Origin: a virus | Lineage: Duplodnaviria; Heunggongvirae; Uroviricota; Caudoviricetes | IMG/VR virus record: IMGVR_UViG_2579779107_000005 | DNA length: 64,000 nt | Direction: 5' to 3' (one strand) | Shown: positions 20,592-54,667 of the stretch, in pieces | How the letters are laid out: each line of letters begins with the position of its first letter | Position numbering within the stretch: position 1 is the stretch's first letter | Position numbers and translations under genes: made by a program | The notes under the pieces: model-generated | What the model was told of the DNA's origin: nothing | Databases searched by the model: none | Seen by the model: the letters and a program-made list of their open reading frames with translations, nothing else

Positions 20592-22049
20592 GTATCCTCC
20601 AGGTGATTTAGCGGGCTATTTGCCCTCTGGAATCCCACTATGGGGCAAGTGCGGCACTAGTTCAAGAAATTTAGCGGGCAATTTTCGGCGGTCCCCGCGG
20701 GGAGCTGGAAGGAGTGGCCGGCGAGGGGTTTCGTCGAAGCGGTGCAACTGGGGCAATCGCACCGCTCGGGCGCCGGCGAGGCGCACACCCGCCCCCGGCC
20801 TTTCGCGCGCGTCCCCCTGTCTTAAAATCTGAGGGCTTTCAGGTGGTTCCCAGGTTCGCGTTCGCGGAAAAAAAGATTCGCTGTTTCTGGAGCGTGATCT
20901 ATACCCCCCTCTGTGCGCGCGCGTGTGTGTTCTCTTTTCGATCATGGGGTGCATCAATCGTAAGTTGTTTCTTGATTCGGCTAGTGGTGTGTTAGTGTCT
21001 CTCTTGTCAGCGCGAAAGGCCCCCGGGCCGGAGGTGCTAGCGATCGAATCTTGAGAATTGAATATCGACCTAGCGGGGGAGCGATCCCCATACGCAATAG
21101 CTACAGGCGCTAACCAGAATCCGGCATGCGGGGATATGAAAGGGCAATGCGAGCAATCGCAGAGCTGCAAAGAATGCGCTTGAGAATCAGCAGACTGGAC
21201 AGAGCACGCCCCCGGGCCGCTACTCACGTACTTGCATACTTAGTCGCCACGCTGAATCACTAGCTAAAGTGCAAAACAGATAGCGACCTGCTAGAGTCGG
21301 TATCACGCCGAACGGGGCAAACCGGGAAACCGGTCACACCCCGCGAGACGCATCAAGATACGCAAACGCGAAACCAGCAACGTGCGGGCTGCAACCCAAT
21401 CCGACCTGGTTGAGCACCCGTCCTGGGCCACGGGCCTAGCCGAGACAGGGATTCACGTAGAGCGCCATGCGCACGGTTGTCCGTGCTCAGTCCGGTGGGC
21501 TTGACCCACACGGCCATGCTGCTCCACGCCCGAAATAGGCAGGGATGCGGAATCGCAACTTGGGAATTCAATAGTGGACTCTTAGCGCGCTAATGCCATA
21601 GCGCTCGCCCCTCGACACTGGGCGGCCTAGGCGCGTAGAGCATCATCCGATCGGCCATAGTGCCGCGCATCGGATCGCGCTTGGTAAGCGCGTGTCGTAC
21701 TAGCTCGACCTGTGCGAGCAAGTAGCCGAACAACCTCTCAGCTACAGAGGCACCAGTACGAGTGTGCCTAGGCGGAATTGCAGCCCGTCACCCCACAGTG
21801 GAACCGACCGAACGCCCTCTCCTGGGCGTGCACACCAGCGGGTCGGGAACCGTGACAGGACCACGGAACGAATTGAGTACCAAGATTTGCACCACCCCTA
21901 GCGCTGTCAGCCCGGGTATCCATCCCCGGCATGCGAACCACGCCGCAGGGTCACGCGGCAGCCCCGTGCTCCCACTACAGGTGGGCGCGGTCAGACCGGG
22001 CACGGGGCACGCATCATCCACCATCCGCACACACCAGACAGGGGACCAC
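20592..22049. other. long non-coding, lower-GC divergent switch region
   Basis: About 1.46 kb with no convincing ORF (the listed ORFs are low-complexity artefacts). Two TTAGCGGGC(T/A)A motif copies at 20607-20618 and 20671-20682. A duplicated module, CTTGAGAATTGAATATCGACCTAGCG at about 21047 and CTTGGGAATTCAATAGTGGACTCTTAGCG at about 21566. GC-rich hairpins (GGCCCCCGGGCC). Confidence 0.5.
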
Positions 22050-22329
22050 CATGTCCAAATCCGCCACCCTCGACCGGCCCACCATCACCCACGCGATCGA
22101 CACGGCGGGGCGCGACCTGGGTCCCGTGTCCAAGCGCACGGCCGAGTACCTGTACCTCGCCGACGGATCGCGCATCGCCCTCCACCGTGTGCAGAAGCTC
22201 GCGGCCACCCCCATGCCCACCCAGCAGAAGACCGTCCAGCCGGGCGTCACCCTGCACCAGTTCCCGGACGGCCAGTACCACGTGTCCACCACGGACCAGT
22301 GGCTCGCCGCCTGGGGTGAGGAGCTGTAG
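22050..22329 (+). CDS. hypothetical protein
   Basis: 93 aa from ATG 22050 (MSKSATLDRPTITHAI...). The longer upstream frames are artefacts. Confidence 0.45.
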
Positions 22330-22470
22330 AACCATGCCCAACCGCGACCACAAGCGCACCCCCGAATCCAAGGCCCGCACCCGCCAGCGTCAGCAGGCCC
22401 GCGCCCTCAAGTACGGCAAGACCCGCAAGCTGCGCTAGATTAGCCAGCAATTCATCAACCGGAGGCATTC

Positions 22471-22839
22471 GTGACCGCACCCATCCTCAGCACCAAAGGC
22501 ACGCCCATCACGTCCCGCGACGCTCTCGCCCAGTCGGCAGAGCGCGCCCGCCGCAGGCTCGCGGCCCACTCCCACGCCCCCGCCGGCGTCCTGTGGGACA
22601 GGCTCGCCGACCGCACCGACCTCGACCGAAAGCACGCCAAGAGCGTCGTGCTCTCGCCCGCGTACCACCTCGGCATCGCCCGTGCCTTCAACCGGGTCTC
22701 CCGCCACGCAGCGCTGCGCGGCACTCCCGGCGCGACCATCGGCAAGATCCTGCGCCCCTACGGCGAAGACGCCCGCGCCATCAGCCAGCTAATCCCGCAG
22801 GCGTACCGCGCCCCGCGCCCTCTGGAGGCCCGCGCATGA
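22471..22839 (+). CDS. hypothetical protein
   Basis: 122 aa ORF. GTG start after a TTAGC-motif gap. Confidence 0.45.
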   Translation: MTAPILSTKGTPITSRDALAQSAERARRRLAAHSHAPAGVLWDRLADRTDLDRKHAKSVVLSPAYHLGIARAFNRVSRHAALRGTPGATIGKILRPYGEDARAISQLIPQAYRAPRPLEARA

Positions 22840-22942
22840 GCTGGCTCGACATCATCCGCGCCCTGCTCAACCGCGGCGCCTGCTGGTACGGCCAGCACAC
22901 CACCCACTCGACGCGCTGCACCCTCAACTGAGAGGCACACCC

Positions 22943-23320
22943 ATGCGCTACTTCGGAGTCCTCAACGGCTCGGCCCTCGCCCCGTCGGGCATCCATGACC
23001 GTGAGGCCGTGGTCGTGCTCGATTCGATCCGCCACGCAGAGGACCACCTCTCGTTCGCCCATGTTGGCGCGAACCTCGCCCTGCGCAGCCACGGCGGCAA
23101 GACGCTCGACGGCGAGTACCCCGGCGACATTCCCGGCGGAGTGGGAGACGGGTCTCGCATCACGCTCTTTCAGGTGCCCCGCAGCTCTGTCTACGAGACG
23201 GACGACATGGACGCGGGGGAGCTGTATGACCTGCTGCTCCGCTGCTACGGCCCGGACCTCCACCCGGACTACGAACTGACCGTCGGCCCCCGTGGGGGCG
23301 TCAAGATCGAGAGGCTCTGA
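22943..23320 (+). CDS. hypothetical protein
   Basis: 125 aa ORF. Confidence 0.45.
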   Translation: MRYFGVLNGSALAPSGIHDREAVVVLDSIRHAEDHLSFAHVGANLALRSHGGKTLDGEYPGDIPGGVGDGSRITLFQVPRSSVYETDDMDAGELYDLLLRCYGPDLHPDYELTVGPRGGVKIERL

Positions 23321-23322
23321 CC

Positions 23323-23814: not shown

Positions 23815-23823
23815 GAGACCACC

Positions 23824-25174: not shown

Positions 25175-25182
25175 GAGACCCC

Positions 25183-25937: not shown

Positions 25938-25945
25938 CTCGAATC

Positions 25946-25990
25946 TGGGAGGGGTTCGCAGACACCCGTCGCGGACCCCTCCCCGCATTT
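25946..25990 (+). terminator. terminator-like hairpin
   Basis: GGGAGGGGTTCGC-N10-GCGGACCCCTCCC followed by GCATTTACC. Confidence 0.45.
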
Positions 25991-26290
25991 ACCAGCTATC
26001 TCACTATGTAGCTAATATATTCATATAGTTAGTTGTATTAAGAGCATAGAGATAGTGTCACTACAACTCCCTGGTCAGGCCCCATTTCGCCCGCCCCGGA
26101 AAATCAACAACAACGGTCACATAGCGGGCTAATTCGCACTACATCGTGGACATACGCTATAAAGAAGCTGCACGCATCTTCATCAGGGTGCATAGCGGAT
26201 CGATATAGCGCATGTCGGCGATATAGCGGGAAATCCGCAGCAATGTGACCGGTATAGCCGATCCTGAACTTAGCTGGCTATTCGAACATC
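25990..26290. repeat. AT-rich segment plus iteron-like (T)ATAGCGG repeats (putative origin/regulatory region)
   Basis: AT-rich 25990-26060 (CTAATATATTCATATAGTTAGTTGTATTAAGAGCATAGAGATAG). Six (T)ATAGC(G/C)(G) repeats at about 26121, 26192, 26205, 26222, 26253 and 26270. Largest gap in the early plus block. Confidence 0.45.
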
Positions 26291-26332
26291 AACCCCTCAC
26301 GAACACTCGAACATTCATTCGATTGGAGCATC

Positions 26333-31196: not shown

Positions 31197-31197
31197 C

Positions 31198-31497
31198 ATG
31201 GCCGGGGAGTCGGTCATGCTGATGGGCCGCGCAGACGTGACCCCCGAGTTCATGCCCCAGTGGGGCGTGCGCTTCGAAGACCCGATCGCCGAGCAGCTCC
31301 TGGAGCGCGGAGATGCGACGCCCGTCGCTCCGGTCTGCGTCCACGTCTACCGTCAGACGGACGGCGCCATCGTCGTCCAGATCGACCACGAGCCGCTCGA
31401 CAACGCCGACGCCCGCATCCGCGTCAACGTCAACGACGGCACCATCTTCGACCAGAACATCGAGACGGGTGAGTACTACGGCACCGACCCTGAATAG
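31198..31497 (+). CDS. hypothetical protein
   Basis: 99 aa ORF. Confidence 0.45.
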   Translation: MAGESVMLMGRADVTPEFMPQWGVRFEDPIAEQLLERGDATPVAPVCVHVYRQTDGAIVVQIDHEPLDNADARIRVNVNDGTIFDQNIETGEYYGTDPE

Positions 31498-31837
31498 CCC
31501 GCAGACCGAGCGCATCACCGTCTACTCGTACCGGCCGATCCCCGGCCTCGCCACCATCGGGGGGTTCGAGTTTGCCCGGGAGGGCACGCTTGAAGAGGCC
31601 GGGGTCATCACCCAGTACGGGCTTGACACCGACGTCTGGCATCACGACTGGGTGCAGACGCACGACCGCCGACTCCTCAGCATCGACGCACCCGCCGGCA
31701 TGACCGACGACGCCGTGCGCAGCTACATCCACCACCGCCACCTCGACGACATCGAGGCCGGTGTCCACGACGACACCGACGACTGCATCGGCCACCAGCT
31801 CCACACGGCCGCCATCACGGAAGGACACCGCCCATGA
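31497..31837 (+). CDS. hypothetical protein (start uncertain)
   Basis: Protein-like frame (LNSPQTERITVYSYRPIPGLATIGGFEFAREG...). No ATG or GTG near its 5' end. Overlaps the previous gene in another frame. Confidence 0.3.
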
Positions 31838-32136
31838 GCCTCGACGGCTACTGGAAGAAGTACGACGAGACCCTCGCCCGCGTCAAGGACGAGAAGCCCG
31901 ACACGTTCGACAAGCTCAAGGTCATCCTGGACGACTTCGAGCCGCCGTCGAGCGGCGAGGCGTTCTTCCCGGGCGGCGCCGACGAGAACCTCGGCGAGGC
32001 CCTCGGGGAGTCCGGCTGGGACGTGCGGTGGATCGAGGGCGACTACCTCTGGACCGCGCTGCACCCCGAGACCAAGGAGGAGCTGCACTACGTCGAGGGT
32101 GACCTCTATCGCGGGCGCTGGCTGCCCGTCCGATGA
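31834..32136 (+). CDS. hypothetical protein
   Basis: 100 aa ORF. Confidence 0.45.
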   Translation: MSLDGYWKKYDETLARVKDEKPDTFDKLKVILDDFEPPSSGEAFFPGGADENLGEALGESGWDVRWIEGDYLWTALHPETKEELHYVEGDLYRGRWLPVR

Positions 32137-32384
32137 GCTACGCCACCAAGGCCCACCCCAAGCTGGTCACACTCGACGAGGAGGTGCGTCGCCGCCACCG
32201 CGAGATGGATGGCGACCACTTCCCCGACCGCCCCGCCTACGGCCGCCCCGGCGGCACGAGCGTCGCCAAGTGGGCGTGCGGCAACGAGGAGTGCGACTAC
32301 TGGACCGGGTACGCGACCCGTGCCAAGGCGAACCGCATGATCCTGCAGCACTGCGACGCCAAGAACACCTCACCGCGAATTTAG
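32133..32384 (+). CDS. hypothetical protein
   Basis: 83 aa ORF with Cys residues. Confidence 0.4.
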   Translation: MSYATKAHPKLVTLDEEVRRRHREMDGDHFPDRPAYGRPGGTSVAKWACGNEECDYWTGYATRAKANRMILQHCDAKNTSPRI

Positions 32385-32433
32385 CCAGCAAAATCGTGTA
32401 CGCTGTTCCCATTCCAACACTCAAGGAGACCCC

Positions 32434-33499: not shown

Positions 33500-33622
33500 A
33501 TGGACTTCGATGACATCGACGACAGCGCGTACGACGCCTGGCTGGACGAGCAGGCTGACAAGTACGGACTCGACCCCGAGCCCGAATACGACCGCAGCGC
33601 CGAGATGGCCTGGCGCGAATAG
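33500..33622 (+). CDS. small acidic protein
   Basis: 40 aa (MDFDDIDDSAYDAWLDEQ...). Not in ORF track. Confidence 0.25.
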   Translation: MDFDDIDDSAYDAWLDEQADKYGLDPEPEYDRSAEMAWRE

Positions 33623-33646
33623 CCCGCAAACGAGAGGGGGATCGCC

Positions 33647-34317: not shown

Positions 34318-35886
34318 GTGGCGAGAGCGAAGAAGCCCACCCCGGTCCCGCGTCGCCTCGAGCCGCGCGAGGACCAGGCGTGGAAGATCGAGCGAGTTCT
34401 CAACGAGCCCACACAGGCCGCCCTCATCGCCGACGACATGGGCAAGGGCAAGACGCTCATGGGCACGGAAATCGTGCTGCGCTCGGACTGGAAGCGCACC
34501 CTCATCGTCGGCATCCGCGACACCGGCAAGCAGTGGGCCGAGTCCTTCTTCAACCAGTCCGGCGGCGCCGTCGAGGTCAAGCTGATGAACTCGAAGACCG
34601 TCGACGGCGAGAAGAACTGGGACGACTTCATGGCCGGGAAGCCGGGCGTGTACTTCGCGGGCATCCAGTGGCTCGTCAGCAAGGACTGGGAGGTCGTCAC
34701 CGAGCTGGACGAACACGACCAGCCGATCAAGGTGCAGGACAAGAAGACGGGGGAGTGGAAGGACAAGACGTTCTCCCAGCACACCGAGTTCATCGGCCGC
34801 CGCCTCAACACGAAGGGCCGCCACATCGACGCGGTGATCTTCGACGAGGTGCACAAGATGCAGAACCGGAAGTCGCAGACCTCACGCACCATCTACTCGA
34901 TCAAGTCCGACTGGCGCATCGGCCTGTCCGGCACGTTCGCCGGCAACAGCTTCACCGGCGCGTGGCGCGTCTGCAAGTGGCTGTGGCCCAAGCTGATCGA
35001 CGGCTCCTTCGTGCGCTGGAAGGGCGTGTGGTGCAAGACCGAGCCGATCACTCGCAAGGATGGCTCGATCATCAAGAGCGACAACCCCTACGCCGACAAC
35101 GAGAAGGTCGTGGGGGAGAAGCAGGAGGGCGCGTTCGTGAAGACGCTGCCCTGCTACATCCGCGACGAGCCGGACCCCGTGCCGGCTCCGCGCATCCTCA
35201 CGGTCCAGCTCACCGAGCGGCAGCGCGAGCAGTACGAATCGCTGCAGGAGACGTCAATGGCGTGGCTGGACGCCCACACGCCGTTCGGGAAGGAGCCGCT
35301 GATCGCGGACCTGCCGATCACTCAGCGGCAGCGCCTCCGCACGGCGACGCTCGGCGAGATGCGCTTCCTCGAGGACGGGCGGATCGGCTTCGATCCGATG
35401 TGCGAGAGCGCCAAGCTCAACGTCACCAAGCACATCGTCGACAACATCTGGGCCAACATGCCCATCGTCATCGGCGCGGTCTCGATCGAGTTCGTGATGA
35501 TGGCCGCCGAGCGCTTCCGCAAGTTCGGGTACGGCGCGGTCGAGTGGCACGGCAAGAAGTCGTCGAACGAGCGCGCGAAGGTCAAGGAGGCGTTCATCGC
35601 CCGCGATCCCGCCGCCCGCTACCTCTTCTGCACGATCCCCTCGATCGGCACTGGAACCGACGGCCTGCAGCGGGCCTGCTCCAAGATGATCTGGCTCGAG
35701 GAGAGCGAGAACAACCTCGAGAATGCGCAGTTCGTGAAGCGCTGCGCCCGGCCCGGGATGACGCTCGACTATGGGCCGTTCGAACACGTCAAGCTCCTCG
35801 CCGACGGCACCATCGACTTCGGCATCATGTACCGCCACGACGCCAACCAGGCGTCGATCAACGCCTCAATGCGCCGGGCTGCTTAG
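34318..35886 (+). CDS. SNF2-family helicase/ATPase
   Basis: Motif I DDMGKGKT (SNF2-type DEMGLGKT) and motif II IFDEVH, with a C-terminal helicase domain. Confidence 0.8.
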   Translation: MARAKKPTPVPRRLEPREDQAWKIERVLNEPTQAALIADDMGKGKTLMGTEIVLRSDWKRTLIVGIRDTGKQWAESFFNQSGGAVEVKLMNSKTVDGEKNWDDFMAGKPGVYFAGIQWLVSKDWEVVTELDEHDQPIKVQDKKTGEWKDKTFSQHTEFIGRRLNTKGRHIDAVIFDEVHKMQNRKSQTSRTIYSIKSDWRIGLSGTFAGNSFTGAWRVCKWLWPKLIDGSFVRWKGVWCKTEPITRKDGSIIKSDNPYADNEKVVGEKQEGAFVKTLPCYIRDEPDPVPAPRILTVQLTERQREQYESLQETSMAWLDAHTPFGKEPLIADLPITQRQRLRTATLGEMRFLEDGRIGFDPMCESAKLNVTKHIVDNIWANMPIVIGAVSIEFVMMAAERFRKFGYGAVEWHGKKSSNERAKVKEAFIARDPAARYLFCTIPSIGTGTDGLQRACSKMIWLEESENNLENAQFVKRCARPGMTLDYGPFEHVKLLADGTIDFGIMYRHDANQASINASMRRAA

Positions 35887-35909
35887 CCCGCTATCTGGAA
35901 GGAGAACCA

Positions 35910-39705: not shown

Positions 39706-41222
39706 GCGCCATTGCGCCCCTCCTCGAGACCGACGCCTACAAGCTCGACCACCGGCGGCAGTACCCCGCCGGGACCAGCAGGGTGTACTCGAACTTCACC
39801 AACCGCGGCAGCCGCATCCCCGGTGTGACGCACGTCGTCCACTTCGGCCTGCAGGCGTTCCTGCAGCGCTACCTCATGGACGGCTTCAAGGCGTTCTTCG
39901 CCGCCGACGAGGACGCTGTGGCCCTGGCCTACGAGCGCGCCGTCGCGTCGATCCTCGGCCCGAACGACGTCGGCTCCGACCATATCCGCGCACTCCACCA
40001 GCTCGGTCACATCCCGCTCCGCTTCGCCGCGGTGCCCGAGGGCACGCCTGTCCCGCTGCGCGTCCCGTCGTTCACCGTCGAGAACACCCACCCGGACTTC
40101 TTCTGGCTCACCAACTACATCGAGACCGTGCTCAGCGCGTCCGTGTGGGGGCCGTCGACGAGCGCCACGATCGCCCGCGAGTACCGCAAGGTGCTCGACG
40201 ACGCGGCCGAGCGCACGGGTGGCAGCAAGGAGGCGGTGGACTTCCAGCTCCACGACTTCTCCTACCGCGGGATGCCCGGCACCGAGGCGGCAGCCGCATC
40301 CGGCGCCGGCCACCTCCTGAGCTTCAAGGGCAGCGACTCCCTCGCCTCCCTCGAGTGGATCGACACCTACTACGGCGACAACCCGTGGCGCACGGACCTC
40401 TACCCGTCGCACACCGGCCTGCCGAACGGCCTCATCCTCGGCAGCGTGCCGGCCACTGAGCACAGCGTGATGTGCGCTGGCGGACAGGACGACGAGGAAG
40501 AGACGTACGAGCGCCTGCTCGAGCTGTACCCCAGCGGCATCGTCTCGATCGTCTCCGACACCTGGGACCTCTGGCACGTCGTCATGAGTATCCTCCCGCG
40601 GCTCCGCCACGACATCATGCAGCGCGACGGCAAGGTTGTGATCCGCCCCGACTCCGGCGATCCCGCGGACATCATCTGCGGCACGCGGCGCACGAAGCGC
40701 GGCTACAACGACGCGGCGGGCACCCCAGAAGAGGCCGGCCTGATCGAGCTGCTGTGGGAGATTTTCGGCGGTACGACGGTCAAGGGCCTCAAGGTGCTGG
40801 ACCCGCACATCGGTGCGATCTACGGCGACAGCATCACCATCGACCGGGCGCGCGACATCATCGAGCGTCTCGAGGCGAAGGGATTCGCGCCGAGCAACAT
40901 TGTCTTCGGTGTCGGCTCGTACACCTACCAGTACGTCACCCGCGACACCTTCGGGTCCGCGATCAAGGCGACGTACGTCGTGGTGGATGGCGAGGGTCGC
41001 AACATCCAGAAGGCGCCCAAGACCGACAACGGCCTCAAGAAGAGCGCCACGGGCCGCCTGGCGGTGGTGCGCTCCAACGGCGAGCTGACGCTTATCCAGG
41101 AGGCTTCGCCGGCCCTGGAGGCCGTCTCGGAGCTGCAGCCGGTCTGGGAGGACGGGCAGTTCATCACCTACCAGTCCTTCGCCGACGTGCGGCGCCAGCT
41201 CGCGCTCTCGACGGATGGCTAG
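39701..41222 (+). CDS. nadV: nicotinamide phosphoribosyltransferase-like (NAMPT/NadV family, possible Namat)
   Basis: About 506 aa. N-terminal TDAYKLDHRRQYP signature of NAMPT and conserved downstream blocks. Confidence 0.8.
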
Positions 41223-41340: not shown

Positions 41341-41578
41341 CCACTCGAGACGCCCTGCCCCAGCCGGGGGACCCGGAGTACGGATTCCGGTGCCCCCGGG
41401 TGTCGGGCAGCCTGCACCATGCCCAACACGCAAGTCATCGAGTGCATCAGTCCCTACTGCGACTGGATCGGCGGCTCGCCCTGAGCTTGACCACAACATC
41501 TTGTGGTGCTGTATGGTCGCCAGCAGACCAACTTGAAATTGCTGGCTAAATCGCTATCGTCAAAGACCTGGAGGAAAT

Positions 41579-42597: not shown

Positions 42598-43305
42598 ATG
42601 GCACTGTCCCAGGCAGTTATGGACGCCTTCAACAAGGGCGGCAACGGAGGAGGGCGTCAGCCGGCGCTCCCCGACAACAGCAGGGTCAACGTCACCATCG
42701 TCCCGAGCAAGAAGGACATCGGCTACATCGAGCGCGAGCCGATGACCGAGAAGGACTCCCCGAACGCCCGCATCCGCGTCCTCCGCATGCGCTTCGTGAT
42801 CCCGGAAGGCGAGCAGCACGCCAACCGGAACTTCTTCGCGAACATCCCCGAGGAGTTCGAGGTCTGGTCGGACAAGAACGGCGGCCTCGTCCCGTCGTAC
42901 CTGACCATCGGCCTGATGAAGGCCCTCGGCTACTCCCTCGAGCAGCTCGACGACGACACCGTGAAGAAGATCACCGACCGGGAGCTGCTGAACAAGCGCC
43001 TGCAGCTCGTGCTCGGCGTCGAGGCGGACACCCGCTTCGACGCGGCGGACGCCGACGAGGCCGCGAAGGCCGCCCAGAACCCGCTCTACGCGATGCGCAA
43101 CACGGTGAAGTTCATCAACGCGCCGTCCGCGTCGTCGAGCGCGCCGCGGGCGAGCGCTCCGGCCGCCGGTGGCATCCAGGGCGGCGTGCCGCGCGCCACC
43201 GCCCCCGCCGCTGGCGCCCCGCAGGCCGCGGTCGACCCGTGGGCCGCCGCCGGCGCGCCGGGTGCCGCCACCGACCCCTGGGCCGCCGCCACCCAGACGG
43301 TCTAG
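42598..43305 (+). CDS. hypothetical protein (ATPase partner)
   Basis: 235 aa. C-terminal Ala/Pro-rich tail with repeated DPWAAA. Confidence 0.45.
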   Translation: MALSQAVMDAFNKGGNGGGRQPALPDNSRVNVTIVPSKKDIGYIEREPMTEKDSPNARIRVLRMRFVIPEGEQHANRNFFANIPEEFEVWSDKNGGLVPSYLTIGLMKALGYSLEQLDDDTVKKITDRELLNKRLQLVLGVEADTRFDAADADEAAKAAQNPLYAMRNTVKFINAPSASSSAPRASAPAAGGIQGGVPRATAPAAGAPQAAVDPWAAAGAPGAATDPWAAATQTV

Positions 43306-43396
43306 CAGTAGCCAGCTAAATCGGGCCGCTGCGCACCGATCATCACTCCCCATGTGGGTAAAGACGATCCGGTCGAGATGCGCAGCGGTCCCATCG

Positions 43397-43484
43397 TCCT
43401 CGTAGCTCAGCAGGCAGAGCACTGAGTCGCCGGCGCCGGCGCGAACGAGACAGAGGCCGCGGGTTCGAACCCCGCCGAGGACGC
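43397..43484 (+). tRNA. tRNA-like element (atypical or degenerate; anticodon arm not canonical)
   Basis: Canonical acceptor pair GTCCTCG/CGAGGAC, D-arm TAGCTCAGCAGGCAGAGC and T-arm GCGGG-TTCGAAC-CCCGC. The 37-nt middle is a GC palindrome (GCCGGCGCCGGC) with no 5-7-5 anticodon stem-loop that I could find. Confidence 0.35.
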
Positions 43485-43556: not shown

Positions 43557-46052
43557 GTGCAGAGGAAGAGCCTCGCGATCGTCGACTATGCAGCCCTGGC
43601 AGCAGAGTCGGGGCTCAAGGTCGTACCGCTCACCCCGGTCGGCAAGATTCCCTGGGTCCAGAACTGGACCGAGGCCGCATCCACCGACGTCGACCAGGTG
43701 TACGCCTGGTTCCAGCAGAAGCCCCAGTCCAACTACGGCATCTGCACGGGCTACGACGGCCTCTTCGTCATCGACCTCGACGGACCAGAGGCGATCGCCT
43801 GGTGGCGCGAGCAAGGCTTCCAGCCCGGCGTCGAAGTGATGACGCCCAACGGCGGCATGCACGTCTACTACCGCGCCCCCGAGGGCTTCGAGGTGCAGAC
43901 GAACCAGAAGAAGCTCCACCACAAGGTCGACGTGCGCGGCGTCGGCGGACAGGCCGCCGGCCCGGGCTCCGTGCTCGGCACCGGGACGTACCGCGGCGAC
44001 GTCGAGGCGATCGCCGAGGCCCCCGAGGCTCCGCCAGAACTCATGGCGATCATCCCGGAAAAGCAGAGCTACACGCAGGTCGCCCCGACCCGTGAGGAGA
44101 AGGTCGAGGAGGCGCACGAGCGAGAGCGCGCAGGCGTCGCCTACATCATCCAGAAGCTCCAGAGCCTCCCCTCCGTCTGGGCCAGCGGCGCCGGATGGCA
44201 CGACACCGTGCGCGACCAGGCGATGTGGCTCTCCCGCATGGTCAACTCCAACGACTACGCCATGACCGAGGACGCCGCCCTCACGATCCTGCTCACCCAC
44301 ACGCCGACCTACCCGAGCTGGGGCGAGGACAAGGTCATCCTCTACTGGGAGGACGCCAAGAAGCGCACCATCGGCCAGTTCGCGCCGCCGCCCGGCGAGG
44401 AAGACGACATCCCCGGCCTGCTGCCGCTCTTCAAGGCGCAGGAAGGAGTGCCGACGACCGATTCCCGTGGGCGCGACTTCATGGACCTCGTGTGGACGCC
44501 GCCGGCAAGCGACACGGACGGCGCCTTCTGGGATCGACGCAGACAGATCATGCTCGAGTCGCTGCGCGCCGGCCTCGACATCCAGCAGGCGTTCTCCCTG
44601 ACCGCAGGCTCGGTCGCCGCCGAGATGCTGATGCGCGAGCACGATGGTCGCCTCACGCTGTGGAAGGAAGCCAAGAAGCACATCCGCGACTTCCAGAACG
44701 AGCAGGTCACGGGGCTCCCGACTCAGGAGCCCGACACGCTCGACGTGCCCGTCGAGCTGGGAGATGTCGACCGCCTCGAACTGCTCACCCGACTCGAGCG
44801 CGAGGCGATGTTCGCCGACCCCGACAAGTACCGGTGGATCGGCACCCGCTACCTCGAGTGGGTACGCGACTCCGTGAAGCTCGCCAACATGCCCTACCAC
44901 CGCCTGCACGTCTGGATGAACCTGTCCGTCGTCTTCGGCATGCTCGCGTACATCCCACGCGAGGGCAAGAAGCTCGGCGTCAACCTCTGGGGCTTCATCA
45001 TCGGCGACTCGTCGACCGGAAAGACCGAGGCTCTCGAGAAGGCCGAGAGCGTGATCGACGCCTACTTCAAAGACGACGACGTGAACCTCGGCGCAGACGC
45101 CACCACAGAGGCCCTGCACGACGCCCTGATCGGCCGCGACGGCAAGCCGAGCTACCAGGTCATCGACGAGGCTCACGGCCTCCTGGGCGACCTCAGCGGC
45201 TCCAAGGGATTCCGCGGCGACCTCATCACCCGATGGACCGAGTTCTACGAGGGCAAGGTCCGCGCCTCGCTGCGCAGCACGAAGAAGGAAATCAGCGGCA
45301 AGGCCGCCACCACCTCCTTCTCGCTCCTCATGCAGGGCACCTCGGAGAAGATGCGGAAGGCCATGAACACCTCGCTGTGGGAGTCCGGCTTCCTGGTGCG
45401 CGCGCTCTTCGTCATCGGCGAGAACATCGAGCCCTCCGAAGAGGACCTCGACGTCCGCCTGATCGAGGGCGACGCCGACGCGGCGTACAACGCCATGCCG
45501 CGTCAGTTCGCCGCCGAATGGCAGAACACCCGCAGAAGGCTCCAGGGCCGCTATGGCGACGACCCGATCAAGATGGAGTTCGAGGCGGACGCCCTCGCCC
45601 GGCTCAACGCCGCGATGAGGCGCATGCGCGCGGACCTCAAGACCAGGCCGAACCAGGTGGCCCTCAAGCCGTACGCGGCCCGATTCCCGAACCAGGTACT
45701 CAAGATGGCGGCGCTCGTAGCGCTCTCCGAAGCCCGTGTCACCGTGAGCGAGAGAGACGTTCTCATCGCCCTGCACGCGAGCGAGGAGTTCCTCACCGCC
45801 GCGATCATCATGGCGAAGCTCACCACCGACACCGACTTCGCGCAGAAGGTCGACGCCGTGGAGAAGCTCGTCGCCGAGCGCGGCGGAAAGCTCGAGCTGA
45901 ACAAGGTCTACAGGCACTTCTCGGAGCCCGTCTTCGAGGTCAACAAGTGGATCGACCAGCTCGTCGCCGAGAGGCGCGTCACCAAGACCAGGCCGATCAC
46001 CGGCGACTTCACCATCAACCTCATCAGAGACACGGAAAGGATGGCGGCATGA
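43557..46052 (+). CDS. bifunctional primase-polymerase (PrimPol) with C-terminal D5-like helicase/ATPase
   Basis: N-terminal Prim-Pol motifs (LFVIDLDG, GGMHVYY). C-terminal Walker A GDSSTGKT. About 830 aa. GTG start with GAGAGGAA RBS. Confidence 0.7.
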   Translation: MQRKSLAIVDYAALAAESGLKVVPLTPVGKIPWVQNWTEAASTDVDQVYAWFQQKPQSNYGICTGYDGLFVIDLDGPEAIAWWREQGFQPGVEVMTPNGGMHVYYRAPEGFEVQTNQKKLHHKVDVRGVGGQAAGPGSVLGTGTYRGDVEAIAEAPEAPPELMAIIPEKQSYTQVAPTREEKVEEAHERERAGVAYIIQKLQSLPSVWASGAGWHDTVRDQAMWLSRMVNSNDYAMTEDAALTILLTHTPTYPSWGEDKVILYWEDAKKRTIGQFAPPPGEEDDIPGLLPLFKAQEGVPTTDSRGRDFMDLVWTPPASDTDGAFWDRRRQIMLESLRAGLDIQQAFSLTAGSVAAEMLMREHDGRLTLWKEAKKHIRDFQNEQVTGLPTQEPDTLDVPVELGDVDRLELLTRLEREAMFADPDKYRWIGTRYLEWVRDSVKLANMPYHRLHVWMNLSVVFGMLAYIPREGKKLGVNLWGFIIGDSSTGKTEALEKAESVIDAYFKDDDVNLGADATTEALHDALIGRDGKPSYQVIDEAHGLLGDLSGSKGFRGDLITRWTEFYEGKVRASLRSTKKEISGKAATTSFSLLMQGTSEKMRKAMNTSLWESGFLVRALFVIGENIEPSEEDLDVRLIEGDADAAYNAMPRQFAAEWQNTRRRLQGRYGDDPIKMEFEADALARLNAAMRRMRADLKTRPNQVALKPYAARFPNQVLKMAALVALSEARVTVSERDVLIALHASEEFLTAAIIMAKLTTDTDFAQKVDAVEKLVAERGGKLELNKVYRHFSEPVFEVNKWIDQLVAERRVTKTRPITGDFTINLIRDTERMAA

Positions 46053-46498
46053 CCGCGAAGTACAAGGTCGACGAGGCGGTGCGCCGCACGAGGCTCCGCG
46101 CGCTGGAGACCGCGCTGCAGCACGTCCGCGCCGACTACACGGAGCGGGGCGACAAGATCACGGCCGCCGAGGAGCTGCTCGGCTATCGGGTGTTCACCAC
46201 CGCGCAGGTCGCAGGCTGGCTGGGACTCACAACCTACGCGCTCGAGGGGCGTGCGCAGGAGTTCGAGGACGCCGGCCGCGCCGAAGGCTGGGGATGCCGC
46301 CAGCTCGAGGTCGACCAGCTCCCGACGGCAATCCAGCTCGCCAAGGCCGGACTCTCCGAGTCCAAGCCGAAGACGCTGATCTTCGACGCCCACACCAAGC
46401 ACGGGATGACGTTCGACATGATCGGCGGCCTGCTCTGCCAGCACAAGAACACCGTCCGCCGCATCGTCAGAAGGATCGAAGGCGAGCCCTGGACGTGA
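46049..46498 (+). CDS. HTH DNA-binding protein
   Basis: 150 aa. Probable helix-turn-helix (FTTAQVAGWLGLTTYALEGRAQ). Basic C-terminus. Confidence 0.45.
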   Translation: MTAKYKVDEAVRRTRLRALETALQHVRADYTERGDKITAAEELLGYRVFTTAQVAGWLGLTTYALEGRAQEFEDAGRAEGWGCRQLEVDQLPTAIQLAKAGLSESKPKTLIFDAHTKHGMTFDMIGGLLCQHKNTVRRIVRRIEGEPWT

Positions 46499-50534: not shown

Positions 50535-51001
50535 GCGGCAGGCTTGAGACCTTCCTCGTGCTCGACCCTGGCGGGACGACGGGCTGGTCCACCTGGCTCC
50601 TGCCGGCGGACGGCCCGCTCGAGCCGATCGACCACGGAATGATCCCCGGCGGCCTGCACGGGTTCATCCGGTGGTGGCGAGACATCCACGACTCGGACCC
50701 CGGGTTCGACTTCGTGGTGTCGGAGTCGTTCATCCTCGACGGCCGCACAGCGAAGCCGGACATCACCCCGCTGCACATCGAAGGAGCGCTGGCCGTGTTC
50801 TGCTCGGAGCTGGGGCTGCCGCTCTACTACCAGCGTAACGTCTACAAGGCCCACGCGCCGGACGAGCTGCTCCGACGGCTCGGTTACTACTGGCCGGGCG
50901 CCGGTCATGACCGCGACAGCGCCCGCCACGCCATCGCGTACGCCCTGACCCAGCGGCACATGCCGACCCTCATGGCGATCCACCCGCCGCCTGCGCGATA
51001 G
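50531..51001 (+). CDS. RuvC-like Holliday junction resolvase
   Basis: 156 aa. N-terminal LVLDPGGTTGWS (RuvC-type first Asp motif) and C-terminal DSARHAIAYAL. Confidence 0.5.
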   Translation: MSGRLETFLVLDPGGTTGWSTWLLPADGPLEPIDHGMIPGGLHGFIRWWRDIHDSDPGFDFVVSESFILDGRTAKPDITPLHIEGALAVFCSELGLPLYYQRNVYKAHAPDELLRRLGYYWPGAGHDRDSARHAIAYALTQRHMPTLMAIHPPPAR

Positions 51002-51010
51002 CTGGCAAAC

Positions 51011-51048: not shown

Positions 51049-51059
51049 TGGTCGGGCGG

Positions 51060-51380
51060 TCAGGCGGACAGGTGCCTCTTGGCGATGAAGCTGCTGATCG
51101 CCAGCAGCAGGGACGCGACGGACGCGACGTACAGCGCCGGCTGGCCGTCGAGGAAGCCGGCGGCGGTCGCGCCGACCGTGCCCACGGCGCCGAGCCACTT
51201 GCCGGTCTCGTAGATCGCGGCGCGGGCCTTCGCGGGGAGCTTCGACTCCACGACGTCGGCCACCGCATCGACGGTGCCGTTCTCGCTGGCGCCCTCCACG
51301 ATGTCCTTGAGCTTGTCGATGCCGTCAGGGGTGATTTCGTGCTTGCCCACGCGCTCTCTTTCTACTGGCAGGAATCGCAC
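51060..51380 (-). CDS. small membrane protein (holin-like)
   Basis: 106 aa. C-terminal TM segment (LYVASVASLLLAISSFIA). Last gene of the minus late block. Confidence 0.4.
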   Translation of the reverse strand: MRFLPVERERVGKHEITPDGIDKLKDIVEGASENGTVDAVADVVESKLPAKARAAIYETGKWLGAVGTVGATAAGFLDGQPALYVASVASLLLAISSFIAKRHLSA

Positions 51381-51478
51381 TGCAGTGCGTCCATCGGGTC
51401 GGTCGGGACGAAGTAACCGCCCGCGGTCTCGTTGCTGTTCTCGTTCATGGCCTCGTAATTCTCTCGCGGTTCTGCCCG

Positions 51479-52846
51479 CTAATCCAGAAATTCAGCGCTC
51501 GCGCGGAACTGCTGGCCCTGGTGGATCGTGAAGCCGTCGATGATCTGCGGCAGCTCGAAGTGGAACTCGCCCGACTCCTTGAAGCGGATCACGGCGACGC
51601 CCTGCTGCCAGTTCTCGAAGACCTCGGCCGAGCGCCCGTCGGCACCGATCGCACCGTTGACGCTGGGGACCGCGCCGTCGACACGGCAGAGGCAGCCGGG
51701 GTTGATCGCCACCGAGCGAATCGGGCCGAGACGGTCGTAGGTCGTCTTGGACTGCGCCTCGAGGCGGTGAGTGTGGCCGAACGCACGCGAGAAGTGCGGC
51801 GTCTCGTTCGTGTACTTCTCGGCCGTCGACCCGGAACTGCGGACCTTCGTGCCGTGCTCACAGCGGAGCTGGTCGTTGACCCACCAGTGCGACGTCGGGT
51901 AGGCGTCCTTGTAGATGACGTCGAACTCATCCAGGCGCAGCAGGTTCGGCAGACTCATCACCGGCCAGGACTCCGGCATGTTGCCCTTGCGGAGGCCGAA
52001 CGCGGAGACGGCGTTGGTTTCGACGAAGTTCTGCATCCGCTTGTCGTGGTTGCCCTCGATCCAGACGACCTTGCCGGGGGTGGCGGAGCGCAGTTCGGCG
52101 GCAAGGAGGGTGGTGCGGTCGATGGCCGGCTGCGTGGTGAGAGCGAATCCGGCCTCCTGTGCCCAGCGTGACTGCGAGGCAAGGTCGATGATGTCGCCCA
52201 TGACGACAGTCTGTGCCGGCCGCTCGGCAGCGACGATCTGCAGGAAGATGTCGATGGCCGCCTCGTCGTGGAACGGCTCCAGGGAGCCGTCGTCGAGCCG
52301 ACGGAAGCCGATCTGCGTGTCGGCCGCGAGCACCGCGGTCTTCCACTGTCCCCCGAGCGCCGTCGACCGCGGCTTGGGTGCCTTCACCTTGAGCGCAGGA
52401 CCGCGGTCGATCGGCTGCCAGGCAGGGCCTGCCGTGGCCTCCGGCTTGCGGGTGGCCGAGAAGCGATTGGCGTACAGCGTCTTGGTCACCTGGTTCTTGG
52501 TGTGCTGATTCCACACCGAGTGCCCGAACGAGTAGGTGAACTGCTCCGGGTCGTGGCCGTCCTTGCGGAGCTTGTCGAGCCACCAGCTCAGCGGCAGGAT
52601 GCGGTTGTAGACGACCTCGTAGGTGAGGTTGCCCTTCTCGTCCTGCCCGAACACGTCGCGCACCGGCTGGTCGTCGGCAGCTTCGGCGGCCTCCGCTTCC
52701 TGCGCCCGGAGCCGGTTGCGGTACTTCGAGATGGTGGCCTGGGCCACGTCCCACTTGAGTGCGAGGGCGGCCTGGGGGGCGTCTCCGCGCAGGTCGTCCA
52801 GGAACTCCTGGTTGTTGAGCAGGTCGATGGCCCTGGGGTCGTGCAA
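51479..52846 (-). CDS. calcineurin-like metallophosphoesterase with N-terminal HTH
   Basis: GDIIDL and GNHD metallophosphatase motifs. N-terminal helix-turn-helix-like segment. Confidence 0.65.
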   Translation of the reverse strand: MHDPRAIDLLNNQEFLDDLRGDAPQAALALKWDVAQATISKYRNRLRAQEAEAAEAADDQPVRDVFGQDEKGNLTYEVVYNRILPLSWWLDKLRKDGHDPEQFTYSFGHSVWNQHTKNQVTKTLYANRFSATRKPEATAGPAWQPIDRGPALKVKAPKPRSTALGGQWKTAVLAADTQIGFRRLDDGSLEPFHDEAAIDIFLQIVAAERPAQTVVMGDIIDLASQSRWAQEAGFALTTQPAIDRTTLLAAELRSATPGKVVWIEGNHDKRMQNFVETNAVSAFGLRKGNMPESWPVMSLPNLLRLDEFDVIYKDAYPTSHWWVNDQLRCEHGTKVRSSGSTAEKYTNETPHFSRAFGHTHRLEAQSKTTYDRLGPIRSVAINPGCLCRVDGAVPSVNGAIGADGRSAEVFENWQQGVAVIRFKESGEFHFELPQIIDGFTIHQGQQFRASAEFLD

Positions 52847-52869
52847 GCTGGTCCTCCTGAGTTAGCCGG

Positions 52870-53196
52870 CTACTTGGCGATCGCGGATGCGAGCTGCGAC
52901 AGCGTGACGAACAGGCCGACGCCGGTTCCGCACGCGGCGAGGATCGCGGCGATGCCGCCTACGACGACGTACCAGGGAGCGCGTGGGCGCTCCCTGGACT
53001 CGATGACGGTGAGGCGCGTCTTCACGCCCTCGATTTCGGTGCGGTTGGTGACGTTCTCGGCGCGCACGTCGTCGACGGCCTTGACCTGCTCGGCCTTGAA
53101 GTCGGTGAACGCCTGCAAGATGTTGCGCTGCCCTTCCTGAACCACGCCGATTGCGACGGCGAGGCCGGTGAAGTCCTTGGGAGTCTCGTCGCCCAC
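52870..53196 (-). CDS. holin-like membrane protein
   Basis: About 108 aa. C-terminal TM helix (WYVVVGGIAAILAACGTGVGLFVTL). Immediately downstream of the endolysin. The PRS-rich upstream part of the ORF-track frame is an artefact. Confidence 0.45.
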   Translation of the reverse strand: MGDETPKDFTGLAVAIGVVQEGQRNILQAFTDFKAEQVKAVDDVRAENVTNRTEIEGVKTRLTVIESRERPRAPWYVVVGGIAAILAACGTGVGLFVTLSQLASAIAK

Positions 53197-53197
53197 G

Positions 53198-54037
53198 TCA
53201 GAGACCGAGGGCCTTCCAGGTCTTGTCGCCCACGATCCCGTCGACGTAGAGGCCGGCGCGACGCTGGAACTCCCGCACCGCGGCGTCCGTGTTCGAGCCG
53301 AAGTCACCGTCGAGCACGAGGTTGCCAGCGTAGAGCGGGTAGACGGTCTTGAGTCGGGTCTGCAGGTCCTTGACGTCCTGACCCTTCGAGCCCTTCTTGA
53401 TCTGCGGGCGACCAGAGGCGGTGGGCGCGGGGTTCGCGACCGCCGGTGCACCGCCGAGGGCGGCCTCGGACTTCGGGCCAAAGAGGCCGTCGACCGTGAG
53501 GCCGTTCTTGCTCTGGAAGTCGCGTAGGGCGGCAACCGTGGTGGCGCCGATCTTGTCGTCGACGGCGAGCTTGTAGCCCTTGGCGTTGAGCTTGGTCTGC
53601 ACCCCGGCGCCGTAGCCGGGCGTGATGGTGGAGCCAACGATGACCGTGCGGACCCAGTGCCAGCTCTCGCCGGACGACTTGCCCTGCACGTTGTCGAAGC
53701 CGAAGCGGGCGGCGTTCTTGTCGAGCCACGCTTTGACGCCGGCGCCCATGTAGACGTCGACGGCGCAGCCGAGGCCGTGGTTGGAGAAGCCGGGGGTCGC
53801 GGCGACGGGGCCGCCCGCCTTCGCGCGACGGTCGGCCTCCCGCTGTCCGGCGAGGTCGCGGTAGCAGGACGGTACGCCGTCGTCTGCCGCGGGGCGGAGC
53901 GTGATGCCGTCCGAGGCTGCAGCCGCCACCATCGCGGCCCACTGGGCAGCCGTCTGCCGCTCGAGCACCTGCCCGGGTGCGCCGTTAGCCGCCTGCACCA
54001 GTTCGGATGCGGGAATCTGTCCGTTCGCGTACGTCAC
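53198..54037 (-). CDS. endolysin: M15 (VanY-like) peptidase with two peptidoglycan-binding domains
   Basis: SNHGLGCAVDV zinc-binding motif plus downstream His. Two PG_binding_1-like repeats (TVAALRDFQSKNGLTVDGLFGPKSEAAL; DAAVREFQRRAGLYVDGIVGDKTWKAL). GTG start at 54037 with GGAAGGA RBS. The N-terminal half of the 438-aa track ORF is an artefact. Confidence 0.75.
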   Translation of the reverse strand: MTYANGQIPASELVQAANGAPGQVLERQTAAQWAAMVAAAASDGITLRPAADDGVPSCYRDLAGQREADRRAKAGGPVAATPGFSNHGLGCAVDVYMGAGVKAWLDKNAARFGFDNVQGKSSGESWHWVRTVIVGSTITPGYGAGVQTKLNAKGYKLAVDDKIGATTVAALRDFQSKNGLTVDGLFGPKSEAALGGAPAVANPAPTASGRPQIKKGSKGQDVKDLQTRLKTVYPLYAGNLVLDGDFGSNTDAAVREFQRRAGLYVDGIVGDKTWKALGL

Positions 54038-54072
54038 GAGTATCCTTCCGTCACCAGGGAGTCTACAGCGCA

Positions 54073-54096
54073 CTCCCAGGAAACGCCCAGAATCAG
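54073..54096 (-). promoter_or_regulatory. late-gene upstream motif (CTCCCAGGAAACGCCCAGAATCAG)
   Basis: Lies 35-55 nt upstream of the endolysin GTG and abuts the upstream gene's stop. Confidence 0.4.
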
Positions 54097-54641
54097 AGCT
54101 TGACGATGTACGAGACGGTCGCGTAGGGCGGCATGTTGTTGTGTGCCTTGCCGCCGCCGGCCGCATCCGTGGAGATGCCCTGTGGGTAGGCACTGGAGCC
54201 GCCGTCGCTCGAGTAGTCCCGCCGGATGCCGGGGGAGCCGTTGTTGGCGGACACGTTCTGCTTGTGTGCGTGGGAGGGCATCTCGTCGACAGTGAGGACG
54301 TGACTCTCCTCGCCGCCCGTGAGCCCGGGCTTGTTGTAGGTGAGGTTGTTGACGTCGATGCCGAGCGGGAAGCGCTTGACGAGGTTCGGTACCCGGAAGG
54401 AGGCGCCGGAGCCGCCGTGCGCGTATCCGATCGCGGCGAAAAGCTTCGGGTAGTCGGCGGTGGCGTACTGCTTCCCGTCGCAGAGGAGGTAGCCGACAGG
54501 CGCGGTCGCGCCACCGTACGCCAGGACGGAGCCGGAGGGGACGGCGGCCGAATCGATGGCGGCCTGGACAGACTGCGCGAAGACCGAGAAGAGGTCCTTG
54601 AGCTTGCCGATGCGACCGGAGGTGGGTACTGCGATGCCCAT
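54093..54641 (-). CDS. phage tail collar domain protein (tail fibre-associated)
   Basis: Tail-collar signature GYLLCDGKQYATADYPKLFAAIG ... FRVPNLVKRFPLG. Confidence 0.65.
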   Translation of the reverse strand: MGIAVPTSGRIGKLKDLFSVFAQSVQAAIDSAAVPSGSVLAYGGATAPVGYLLCDGKQYATADYPKLFAAIGYAHGGSGASFRVPNLVKRFPLGIDVNNLTYNKPGLTGGEESHVLTVDEMPSHAHKQNVSANNGSPGIRRDYSSDGGSSAYPQGISTDAAGGGKAHNNMPPYATVSYIVKL

Positions 54642-54667
54642 TTAGCGGGCTCCTTTCGTGGCGTTGA

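Follow-up and report, generated by a model that had tools for sequence, protein, structure and literature searches.

A dispersed palindromic motif as candidate operator of a genome-wide regulon in a Leifsonia aquatica prophage and its relatives

The repressor of the temperate actinophage phiC31 reportedly binds conserved inverted repeats (CIRs) of 17 bp in Streptomyces. Further dispersed repeats are documented for several groups of phages and for RK2. The stoperators of cluster A phages (L5 gp71; TipsytheTRex repressor, PDB 7TZ1) and the corresponding sites of cluster CA Rhodococcus phages are intergenic or overlap gene termini (PMC9283540; PMC13313380). Cluster O mycobacteriophages carry the 17-bp palindromic repeat TGTTCGGNNNCCGAACA in more than 30 copies, for which no function has been described (PMC4351075). 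In cluster K, start-associated sequences (SAS, ESAS) precede many genes of a temperate actinophage, and the upstream stop codon sometimes lies within the repeat (PMC3203893). In the IncP-1 plasmid RK2 a dozen dispersed copies of the KorB operator OB, TTTAGC(G/C)GCTAAA, form a global repression network, while the operator OA of KorA reads GTTTAGCTAAAC (PMC11790492). Here we describe a dispersed motif with the consensus TTAGCNNGCTAA in a 64,000-nucleotide stretch of caudoviral DNA (IMG/VR record IMGVR_UViG_2579779107_000005), which was analysed over its full length, is called the window in the following and is an integrated prophage of Leifsonia aquatica. On balance, the motif is probably the operator of one dimeric DNA-binding regulator, which would presumably be a repressor and most likely phage-encoded. 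The sites would define a genome-wide regulon in a newly described prophage family of the Microbacteriaceae and would thereby be a new example of a known way in which temperate actinobacterial phages control their genes. The logic of the arrangement comes closest to the operator/stoperator network of cluster A, its form to the palindromes of cluster O and the inverted repeats of phiC31.

The gene set of the window was established with a codon-usage gene caller and comprises 96 genes covering 89% of the sequence, which has the high G+C content (62-69%) reported earlier. In the whole window, 2, 11 and 24 sites match TTAGCNNGCTAA at 0, 1 and 2 mismatches, respectively, compared with 0.00 exact sites and 0.25 sites at up to 1 mismatch (largest 2) in whole-window shuffles. 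The intergenic DNA (7.26 kb) contains 2, 9 and 18 of these sites at 0, 1 and 2 mismatches, dinucleotide shuffles of the same gaps 0.00, 0.10 and 1.26, and the coding DNA (56.7 kb) 0, 2 and 6, so that the site density between genes is about 23-fold above the coding density. The half-site WTAGCB is likewise about 15 times denser between genes, with 38 occurrences in 6.96 kb vs 21 in 57 kb of coding DNA. The island composed of an insertion sequence and a DndB-like gene is free of the motif. A first reading of the sequence, referred to as the original prediction, had noted the motif in many of the gaps; checked against coding sequence and shuffled controls, it proved to be enriched more than tenfold between genes. 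Among the 20 coordinates listed there, 16 are good sites with up to 2 mismatches, 37541-37558 is a degenerate but conserved companion and 12353 is borderline, whereas 11899-11912 and 31493-31507, with 3 mismatches each, are unconvincing and were discarded. The list was also incomplete, as the perfect copy 21582-21593 (TTAGCGCGCTAA) had been overlooked. Exact k-mer enrichment in the gaps revealed no further motifs, the method being too insensitive.

For the description of the site a profile was built from 53 intergenic sites of the window and six relatives (L001-L006), each oriented by local transcription. The profile is a 14-bp palindrome, a-W-T-A-G-C-Y-R-G-C-T-A-A-w, and the dyad character proposed originally was thereby established. 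The centre measures 2 bp in 53 of 53 sites and is symmetric as well, with A never occurring at position 6 and T never at position 7. No information content was found from -19 to -1 and from +14 to +32 around the motif. A role of the motif as -35 or -10 element was ruled out, since no -35, -10 or ribosome-binding site stands at a fixed distance from it; the motif is a free-standing dyad without a fixed partner element. Mismatches over the 53 sites are distributed unequally, with 42 in the upstream and 20 in the downstream half, likely because the upstream half often lies inside the end of the preceding gene.

In seven of the 18 intergenic sites of the window the upstream gene uses the TAG at motif positions 2-4 as its stop codon; another two begin 1-2 nt past the upstream stop. 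The next start codon is 0-51 nt away for ten of the 18; the others are farther off or lie in non-coding DNA, and the distance from motif to next start ranges from 0 to 457 nt across the sites. The proposal that most copies sit 15-40 nt ahead of a start codon is therefore half right: ten sites are 0-51 nt from a start, and in nine the site overlaps the upstream stop or is no more than 2 nt away. The motif is as much stop-associated as start-associated. Ribosome-binding sites lie downstream of it, and the motif itself contains no AGGAG. A function as hairpin or terminator was rejected, as the arms are 2 nt apart and a stable hairpin is impossible. Only two copies (564 and 50998) adjoin terminators, and the GCAAA variant found there merges with the A-tract of the bidirectional terminator.

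The window is organised in the following gene blocks:

1-20591, minus strand: capsid, protease, portal and terminase genes (625-6669), then the insertion sequence and DndB-like island, then nucleotide-metabolism genes.
20592-22050: stretch of 1.46 kb without a convincing open reading frame (ORF), between divergent gene blocks.
22051-51001, plus strand: early block with SNF2 helicase, WhiB-like protein, exonuclease-like protein, NAD-salvage enzymes, AAA_24 protein and primase-polymerase.
51060-64000, minus strand: late block with genes for lysis and tail and, for the tape measure protein, the C-terminal end.

The motif copies, and the neighbouring elements that belong to them, are distributed over these blocks as follows (HTH, helix-turn-helix):

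564-575: ATAGCCAGCAAA, 2 mismatches; in the gap that separates the capsid gene from the next late gene, adjacent to a terminator-like hairpin.
12354-12365: TTAGCCACCTAT, borderline, 2 mismatches; overlaps the stop codon of a deoxynucleoside monophosphate (dNMP) kinase-like gene.
20608-20619: TTAGCGGGCTAT; 16 nt ahead of the start of SPFH gene 19599-20591 (minus strand) and downstream of a leftward promoter seen by eye.
20671-20682: TTAGCGGGCAAT; 5 nt upstream of the -35 element of this candidate leftward promoter.
21582-21593: the perfect copy TTAGCGCGCTAA; within the 1.46-kb ORF-free region.
22440-22451: TTAGCCAGCAAT; 1 nt past a stop codon and 19 nt ahead of the next start.
25938-26332: AT-rich gap, in which the stretch 25994-26281 carries the full copies 26121-26132 (ATAGCGGGCTAA) and 26270-26281 (TTAGCTGGCTAT) and 11 half-sites WTAGCB in all.
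26103-26161 and 26204-26262: 59-nt imperfect inverted repeat in the AT-rich gap.
32381-32392: TTAGCCAGCAAA; its TAG is the stop codon of the gene 32133-32384, and a -10-like TACGCT follows 6 nt on (32399-32404).
33619-33630: ATAGCCCGCAAA; its TAG serves as stop codon for the preceding gene.
35883-35894: TTAGCCCGCTAT; the SNF2 helicase gene uses its TAG as stop codon, 14 nt separate it from the next start, and the junction has a copy also in L001, L002, L004 and L005.
37545-37556: companion site TTAGTGGGCAAT, 3 mismatches; 21 bp centre to centre from 37566, kept in L002 and more degenerate in L001.
37566-37577: the perfect copy TTAGCCCGCTAA; in a promoter spacer.
41538-41549: ATTGCTGGCTAA; in a promoter spacer, upstream of the AAA_24 gene.
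43308-43319: GTAGCCAGCTAA; 2 nt past a stop codon, just before a structured element and a tRNA; same junction in L001-L005.
50998-51009: ATAGCTGGCAAA; the last early gene uses its TAG as stop codon, and the hairpin of the bidirectional terminator follows immediately; a copy is present in each of the five relatives aligned (L001, L003-L006).
51471-51482, minus strand: TTAGCGGGCAGA, 2 mismatches; overlaps the stop codon of the HTH-metallophosphoesterase gene.
52862-52873: TTAGCCGGCTAC; overlaps an upstream stop codon; the HTH-metallophosphoesterase gene (51479-52846, minus strand) starts 15 nt further on.
54642-54653, minus strand: GGAGCCCGCTAA; abuts the ATG of the tail-collar gene, with the upstream half replaced by a GGAG ribosome-binding site.

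The copies 564, 51471, 52862 and 54642 lie in the late blocks, and a motif abutting a late-block ATG in a similar way to 54642 occurs in L001 and L002 as well. At 22440, 33619, 35883, 52862 and 54642 the site is squeezed in after a stop codon and ahead of a ribosome-binding site or start, so that a promoter would not fit. Two longer non-coding stretches carry several copies each. The AT-rich gap may be a main control region. The ORF-free stretch 20592-22050 (G+C content 0.62, three motif copies, no match in Rfam and tRNA scans) may represent the main switch region, a non-coding RNA or the genome ends.

Two copies of the early block are embedded in promoters, and a third, candidate promoter is flanked by copies:

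37561-37589, plus strand: sigma-A-type promoter TTGCGT, 17 nt, TACCTT; the spacer is filled by the copy 37566-37577, which starts at the last -35 base.
41533-41560, plus strand: sigma-A-type promoter TTGAAA, 16 nt, TATCGT, found independently by a promoter scan; the copy 41538-41549 stands in the same register.
20637-20665, minus strand: candidate leftward promoter TTGAAC (20665-20660), 17 nt, CATAGT (20642-20637), recognised by eye.

At the first of these junctions both hexamers and the register of the motif recur in the orthologous gaps of L001, L002, L004 and L005, with the -35 boxes TTGTGT, TTGCGA, TTGACA and TTGCGA and the -10 boxes TACCTT, TAACGT, TACCGT and TAGCGT, respectively; the -35 box of L004 is the consensus TTGACA. 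At the second junction all relatives have a motif copy, a strict in-register promoter is present in L004 only, L002 and L005 have the -10 only, and the promoter of L001 was seen by eye. A systematic test (TTGnnn, 16-19 nt, TAnnnT) identified seven promoter-embedded sites in two orthologous groups, all seven directed toward the gene and none opposite. At these sites the motif is a dyad overlapping core promoter elements, as in classical dimeric repressor operators of the lambda CI / Cro type. As the motif lies upstream of the transcription start in the embedded cases, there it must act on DNA and not on RNA. The candidate leftward promoter agrees with the consensus in 8 of 12 positions, which is below the threshold of the promoter scan. 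It is bracketed by the sites 20671 and 20608, the latter at about +11 to +22. Adjacent sites are spaced by 21 bp (37545/37566), 22 bp (in L006) and 63 bp (20608/20671), that is, by whole helical turns (two and six), which suggests cooperative binding of neighbouring sites.

Relatives were found through primase homologues, by protein search and contig look-ups, and comprise the six loci L001-L006. Primase identity is 68-71% for L001 (Frigoribacterium-associated), L002, L003 (from a Pseudolysinimonas metagenome-assembled genome), L004 and L005, and 41% for L006. The motif is present in every one of them, 2 to 7 times at up to 1 mismatch, and L006 shows the half-site variant TTAGT. The junctions were compared by a synteny map and alignments of single gaps, and the counts cover the loci that span each junction. 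Copies are shared (i) after the SNF2 helicase gene, (ii) between the WhiB-like and the exonuclease-like genes and (iii) before the AAA_24 gene, both in every covering locus including L006, (iv) between the homologue of 42619-43305 and the primase region, (v) where the last early gene ends, at its stop codon just ahead of the bidirectional terminator, in all, and (vi) around the HTH-metallophosphoesterase gene. In the gap alignments the motif columns stand out, while the flanks have diverged or been replaced. The check for conservation in related phages with the same gene order, suggested earlier, thus came out in favour of the motif, at matching junctions in L001-L006. This statement covers the sites outside 20608, 20671, 21582, 22440, 26121 and 26270, as SPFH homologues led only to L011 and L012. 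No copy is present in L010 and in Microbacterium phage Platte, whose primases are 35% and 27% identical, respectively, and whose gene order is similar, nor in L011 and L012, unrelated phages sharing only the SPFH gene. It is a real, clade-specific element and could serve as a simple marker for finding prophages of this family.

Compared with the systems introduced above, the motif resembles the cluster A and CA sites in being present in about 20 copies of a 12-14 bp site across a temperate actinophage genome with conservation in relatives (PMC9283540; PMC13313380). As in cluster A, copies are found in promoters, in short gaps and at gene termini and in early as well as late blocks; here 18 are intergenic, three lie in or next to promoters and nine at stop codons. 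Stoperators, however, are asymmetric sequences of 13-14 bp in one orientation, read by a monomer with two different DNA-binding domains, an HTH and a stoperator domain, whereas the present site is a dyad with neither the asymmetry nor the single orientation, and a homologous repressor was not found. A strict cluster A stoperator was rejected, since the site is palindromic including its centre and reads alike on both strands. With the cluster O repeat it shares the character of a short dyad mostly between genes or at gene ends, with a variable centre, a meaningless orientation and cluster-wide conservation (PMC4351075). The cluster O sequence is longer and distinct (7-3-7 vs 5-2-5), its copies are invariant while those described here are degenerate, and an embedding in promoter spacers was not reported there. 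Like the cluster K sequences, the motif is a short repeat before genes that sometimes includes the upstream stop codon. SAS, by contrast, are asymmetric, have a single orientation and a Shine-Dalgarno core, lie 3-7 bp from the start and are restricted to the non-structural arm. This assignment was likewise rejected, as all of the defining features are missing: the motif is palindromic, has no Shine-Dalgarno core, lies 0-457 nt from starts and has copies in the late block. The phiC31 CIRs are said to be a dyad operator repeated in many early-gene intergenic regions of a temperate actinophage, of a distinct sequence and 17 bp long.

Among the interpretations offered in the original prediction, an operator-type, phage-specific regulon fits best, while the cluster K start-associated sequence, the strict cluster A stoperator and the promoter element find no support. 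The case described here would add a palindromic example to the asymmetric stoperator model and may help to explain the palindromes of cluster O.

According to the operator model, one protein acting as a symmetric dimer would bind the motif and regulate the whole prophage. A protein site in a promoter spacer normally blocks RNA polymerase, and given the normal spacers and decent -35 boxes a spacer-bound protein would do so here (37561-37589, 41533-41560 and probably 32381), in a classical operator geometry. The leftward promoter would be controlled from the two sites that bracket it, 63 bp apart. The copies in very short gaps would provide extra binding points which silence read-through or raise the local occupancy, in a stoperator-like manner. 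A repressor is to be expected in a prophage that sits next to a host tRNA. Since the remaining sites are conserved, they matter, and we infer their mode of action from analogy. The motif thus offers a ready map of likely regulatory points with two conserved promoter-operator pairs and one candidate binder; site and binder could serve as a repressible promoter system for Microbacteriaceae.

Several observations weigh against this model. A -10 element in register is found at only three of the 18 window sites, and for the other 15 a roadblock or occupancy effect would have to be assumed by analogy. The mild half-site asymmetry relative to transcription is not predicted by a pure dimer model; the overlap with coding sequence and stop codons can explain it. 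A classical repressor or integrase was not found within the window (the prophage extends past position 64000), and the link between the motif and its candidate binder is confounded by phylogeny. Finally, the motif is nearly unchanged between phages with 30-60% protein divergence, which would also fit a conserved host factor.

The best candidate for the binder is the following gene product:

46049-46498, plus strand: orphan all-alpha protein of 149 amino acids with two HTH-like units, translationally coupled to the primase-polymerase gene.

The structure model is all-alpha and confident (predicted local distance difference test, pLDDT, 86; predicted template modelling score, pTM, 0.82), which agrees with the HTH protein named in the original prediction. 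Its candidacy as binder is predicted from a correlation only. L001-L005 share an almost invariant C-terminal HTH (FxxIGGLLxxHKNxVRRIxRRxEGEPWT). In L006 the position is occupied by a diverged homologue with two HTH units, and in the motif-less L010 and Platte by a protein without the C-terminal HTH. With only 9 clusters among 1.84 billion representative proteins, the family is narrowly distributed, like the motif. A PDB sequence search with the family gave nothing, and Foldseek returned nothing significant, the weak matches being mostly to extracytoplasmic function (ECF) sigma factors or PhyR-like proteins with E >0.4. Scans of about 80 window proteins with Pfam, PHROGs and NCBIfam recognised no repressor, integrase or ParB.

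Three other proteins were considered and rejected. The WhiB-like protein 37214-37540, the other binder suggested originally, gave a weak Wbl match and is unlikely to be a sequence-specific binder; it has no basic tail after GVWGG and is more probably a partner of sigma-A. In the metallophosphoesterase (51479-52846) the N-terminal HTH is conserved in the motif-less L010 as well and correlates poorly with the motif, and a small HTH protein of L002-L004 with faint HTH_38/HTH_23 matches has no homologue in the window. The HTH-metallophosphoesterase itself (455 amino acids, minus strand, N-terminal HTH followed by a metallophosphoesterase domain) is the most conserved protein across the clade, with 52% identity in L006; in L001 and L010 a different C-terminal domain follows the same N-terminal HTH.

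Instead of an operator, the motif could be a positive promoter element which binds a phage activator or a sigma-like factor and marks the starts of early and middle units. This is unlikely. The sites do head gene groups defined by gaps, the embedded motif ends 5-7 nt before the -10, a geometry shared by a second repeat of the late blocks (TTTCYTGGGAG, see below) that looks activator-dependent, and the weak Foldseek matches of the candidate binder are mostly ECF-sigma or PhyR-like (E >0.4). The profile, however, contains no -10 at a fixed offset, such an element being present at just three of the 18 window sites, and at 54642, 35883, 52862 and 22440 only 0-19 nt remain to the start, too little for a promoter. 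The embedded promoters need no activator, having good -35 boxes (TTGACA in L004) and normal spacers of 16-19 nt. A site in the spacer normally blocks RNA polymerase, and MerR-type activation requires spacers of 19-20 nt. Perfect dyad symmetry would also be unusual in a core promoter element.

Distinctly unlikely is the possibility that a conserved Microbacteriaceae host protein, a global regulator or a nucleoid protein, binds the sites and is exploited by the phages. The near identity of the motif in phages of Leifsonia, Frigoribacterium, Pseudolysinimonas and metagenomes despite 30-60% protein divergence speaks for it, as does the lack of an annotated repressor in the window. Against it, L010 and the Microbacterium phage Platte, which come from the same bacterial family and have a similar layout, are completely devoid of the motif, and the C-terminal HTH of 46049-46498 is as invariant as the motif itself. 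It also counts against a host protein that we know of no actinobacterial regulator with this site, host genomes not having been compared.

The RK2 half-site leads to two further explanations. Very unlikely is a KorB/KorA-like network in which TTTAGC half-sites with a 2-bp centre would be read by the clade-restricted two-HTH protein 46049-46498, with a distantly ParB-like fold and no CTPase domain, and in which the sites would double as stop codons, transcription-unit boundaries and perhaps cassette recombination points. Even less probable is a KorB/ParB-like system, with the sites as loading or centromere-like sites of a spreading or sliding partition-and-silencing protein as on RK2. The half-site TTTAGC in an inverted repeat is the same as in OB and OA, and the OB sites are likewise dispersed near and far from promoters (PMC11790492). 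The centre of the present motif, in contrast, is invariably 2 bp, compared with 1 bp in OB and 0 bp in OA, and the element is an integrated phage of an actinobacterial host which, being inserted beside a tRNA, needs no partition system. Pfam gave no match to a ParB N-terminal (CTPase) domain, PF02195-type domain or ParA (about 70 of the 96 called window proteins), no ParB/KorB N-terminal domain, ParA or KorA-family protein was detected in the scanned window proteins, and the fold matches are weak and cover only a generic HTH. The resemblance of the half-sites is a lead only and may be coincidence.

Least probable of all is an action on RNA, as the site of a translational repressor or of RNA processing in the short untranslated stretch before genes: many copies lie 0-50 nt before starts, where they would be in polycistronic RNA, and the downstream half is better conserved along the direction of transcription, but the promoter-embedded copies lie upstream of the transcription start, arms only 2 nt apart cannot form a 5-bp RNA hairpin, the distance to the ribosome-binding site varies, and palindromic symmetry would have no purpose in a single-stranded site.

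The window is regarded as a Leifsonia aquatica prophage adjoining a host tRNA because its primase-polymerase is 100% identical to a Leifsonia aquatica protein encoded on a 638-kb contig and because an identical Logan contig (L007) runs about 250 bp past window position 1 into an apparent host tRNA gene, read by eye, and beyond this into a host ABC-transporter gene. Deposited phage genomes include distant relatives only, with a primase 27% identical to that of Microbacterium phages, and a search for close relatives with the primase in IMG/VR and GTDB genomes found none. For this Microbacteriaceae prophage family (Leifsonia, Frigoribacterium, Pseudolysinimonas and metagenomic relatives), which has no close deposited phage relative, regulation has so far been undescribed.

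The prophage boundary (window 1-430, L007 11855-13021) is unusual in that the genes next to the host are head genes (terminase through capsid and one further gene), the genes for tape measure and tail being found at the opposite end of the window. This seems to place the attachment site inside the structural operon, with the homologue of Platte gene 39 on one side and the head-to-tail genes on the other.

In L004 (3264-4026) an HNH endonuclease gene (3390-3944) is inserted after the SNF2 helicase gene, with a motif copy at 3264 on one side and copies at 3948 and 4015 on the opposite side. In other relatives the site before the primase is adjoined by different additional genes. The motif sites may mark or even promote the exchange of cassettes.

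A second dispersed motif is confined to the late (minus-strand) blocks, is conserved in the relatives and consists of tandem direct repeats of about 11 bp, TTTCYTGGGAG, just past the upstream stop codon:

426-470, 3206-3256, 4820-4851, 7197-7240, 54038-54092, 58906-58937 and 61038-61059, minus strand: TTTCYTGGGAG repeats in the window.
L002 21510-21531, L003 12197, L004 19245 and L005 18604: TTTCYTGGGAG repeats in relatives.

In most copies TAnnnT follows about 6 nt on and GTG or ATG another 6-7 nt later, with no Shine-Dalgarno sequence. This geometry fits activator-dependent late promoters that would give rise to leaderless mRNAs.

Directly downstream of the motif copy 43308 and upstream of the tRNA and primase region lies a conserved structured element:

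43320-43392: structured element in the window.
L001 9733-9815, L002 8889-8975, L003 131-215 and L004 8817-8905: structured element in relatives.

In five phages its long outer stem shows 6 compensatory pairs; the inner pairing CCGAC...GGTCGAG is invariant, and the element also contains a small CCCATGTGGG hairpin. Rfam contains no match to it, the only hit at the gathering threshold in the window being the tRNA. The element may represent a small RNA or else a structure in single-stranded DNA that is connected with priming. The adjacent tRNA-Ala (anticodon GGC, 43396-43484, Rfam tRNA score 49.7) measures 89 nt, an unusual length for a tRNA-Ala owing to an insertion in the variable region. As judged from the alignments, without a tRNA search of the loci, a tRNA-like sequence occupies the same place in L001, L003 and L006 and not in L002 or L004.

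The insertion sequence (7279-10166, about 2.86 kb) encodes an rve-family transposase and lies between the terminase region and the DndB-like gene (10372-11748). Its terminal inverted repeats of 60 nt (7293-7352 and 10093-10152) are 80% complementary, and it is flanked by the 15-nt direct repeat CTCGTTTTGGGCTTG (7279-7293 and 10152-10166). The region 38830-41222 of the early block encodes a protein with a phosphoribosyltransferase domain and an enzyme of the NAMPT/NAPRTase family, which look like a phage NAD+ salvage pair and perhaps constitute a counter-defence module. Within the window, nucleotide similarity to deposited phages is limited to this region, at 77% to Gordonia phage Bantam.

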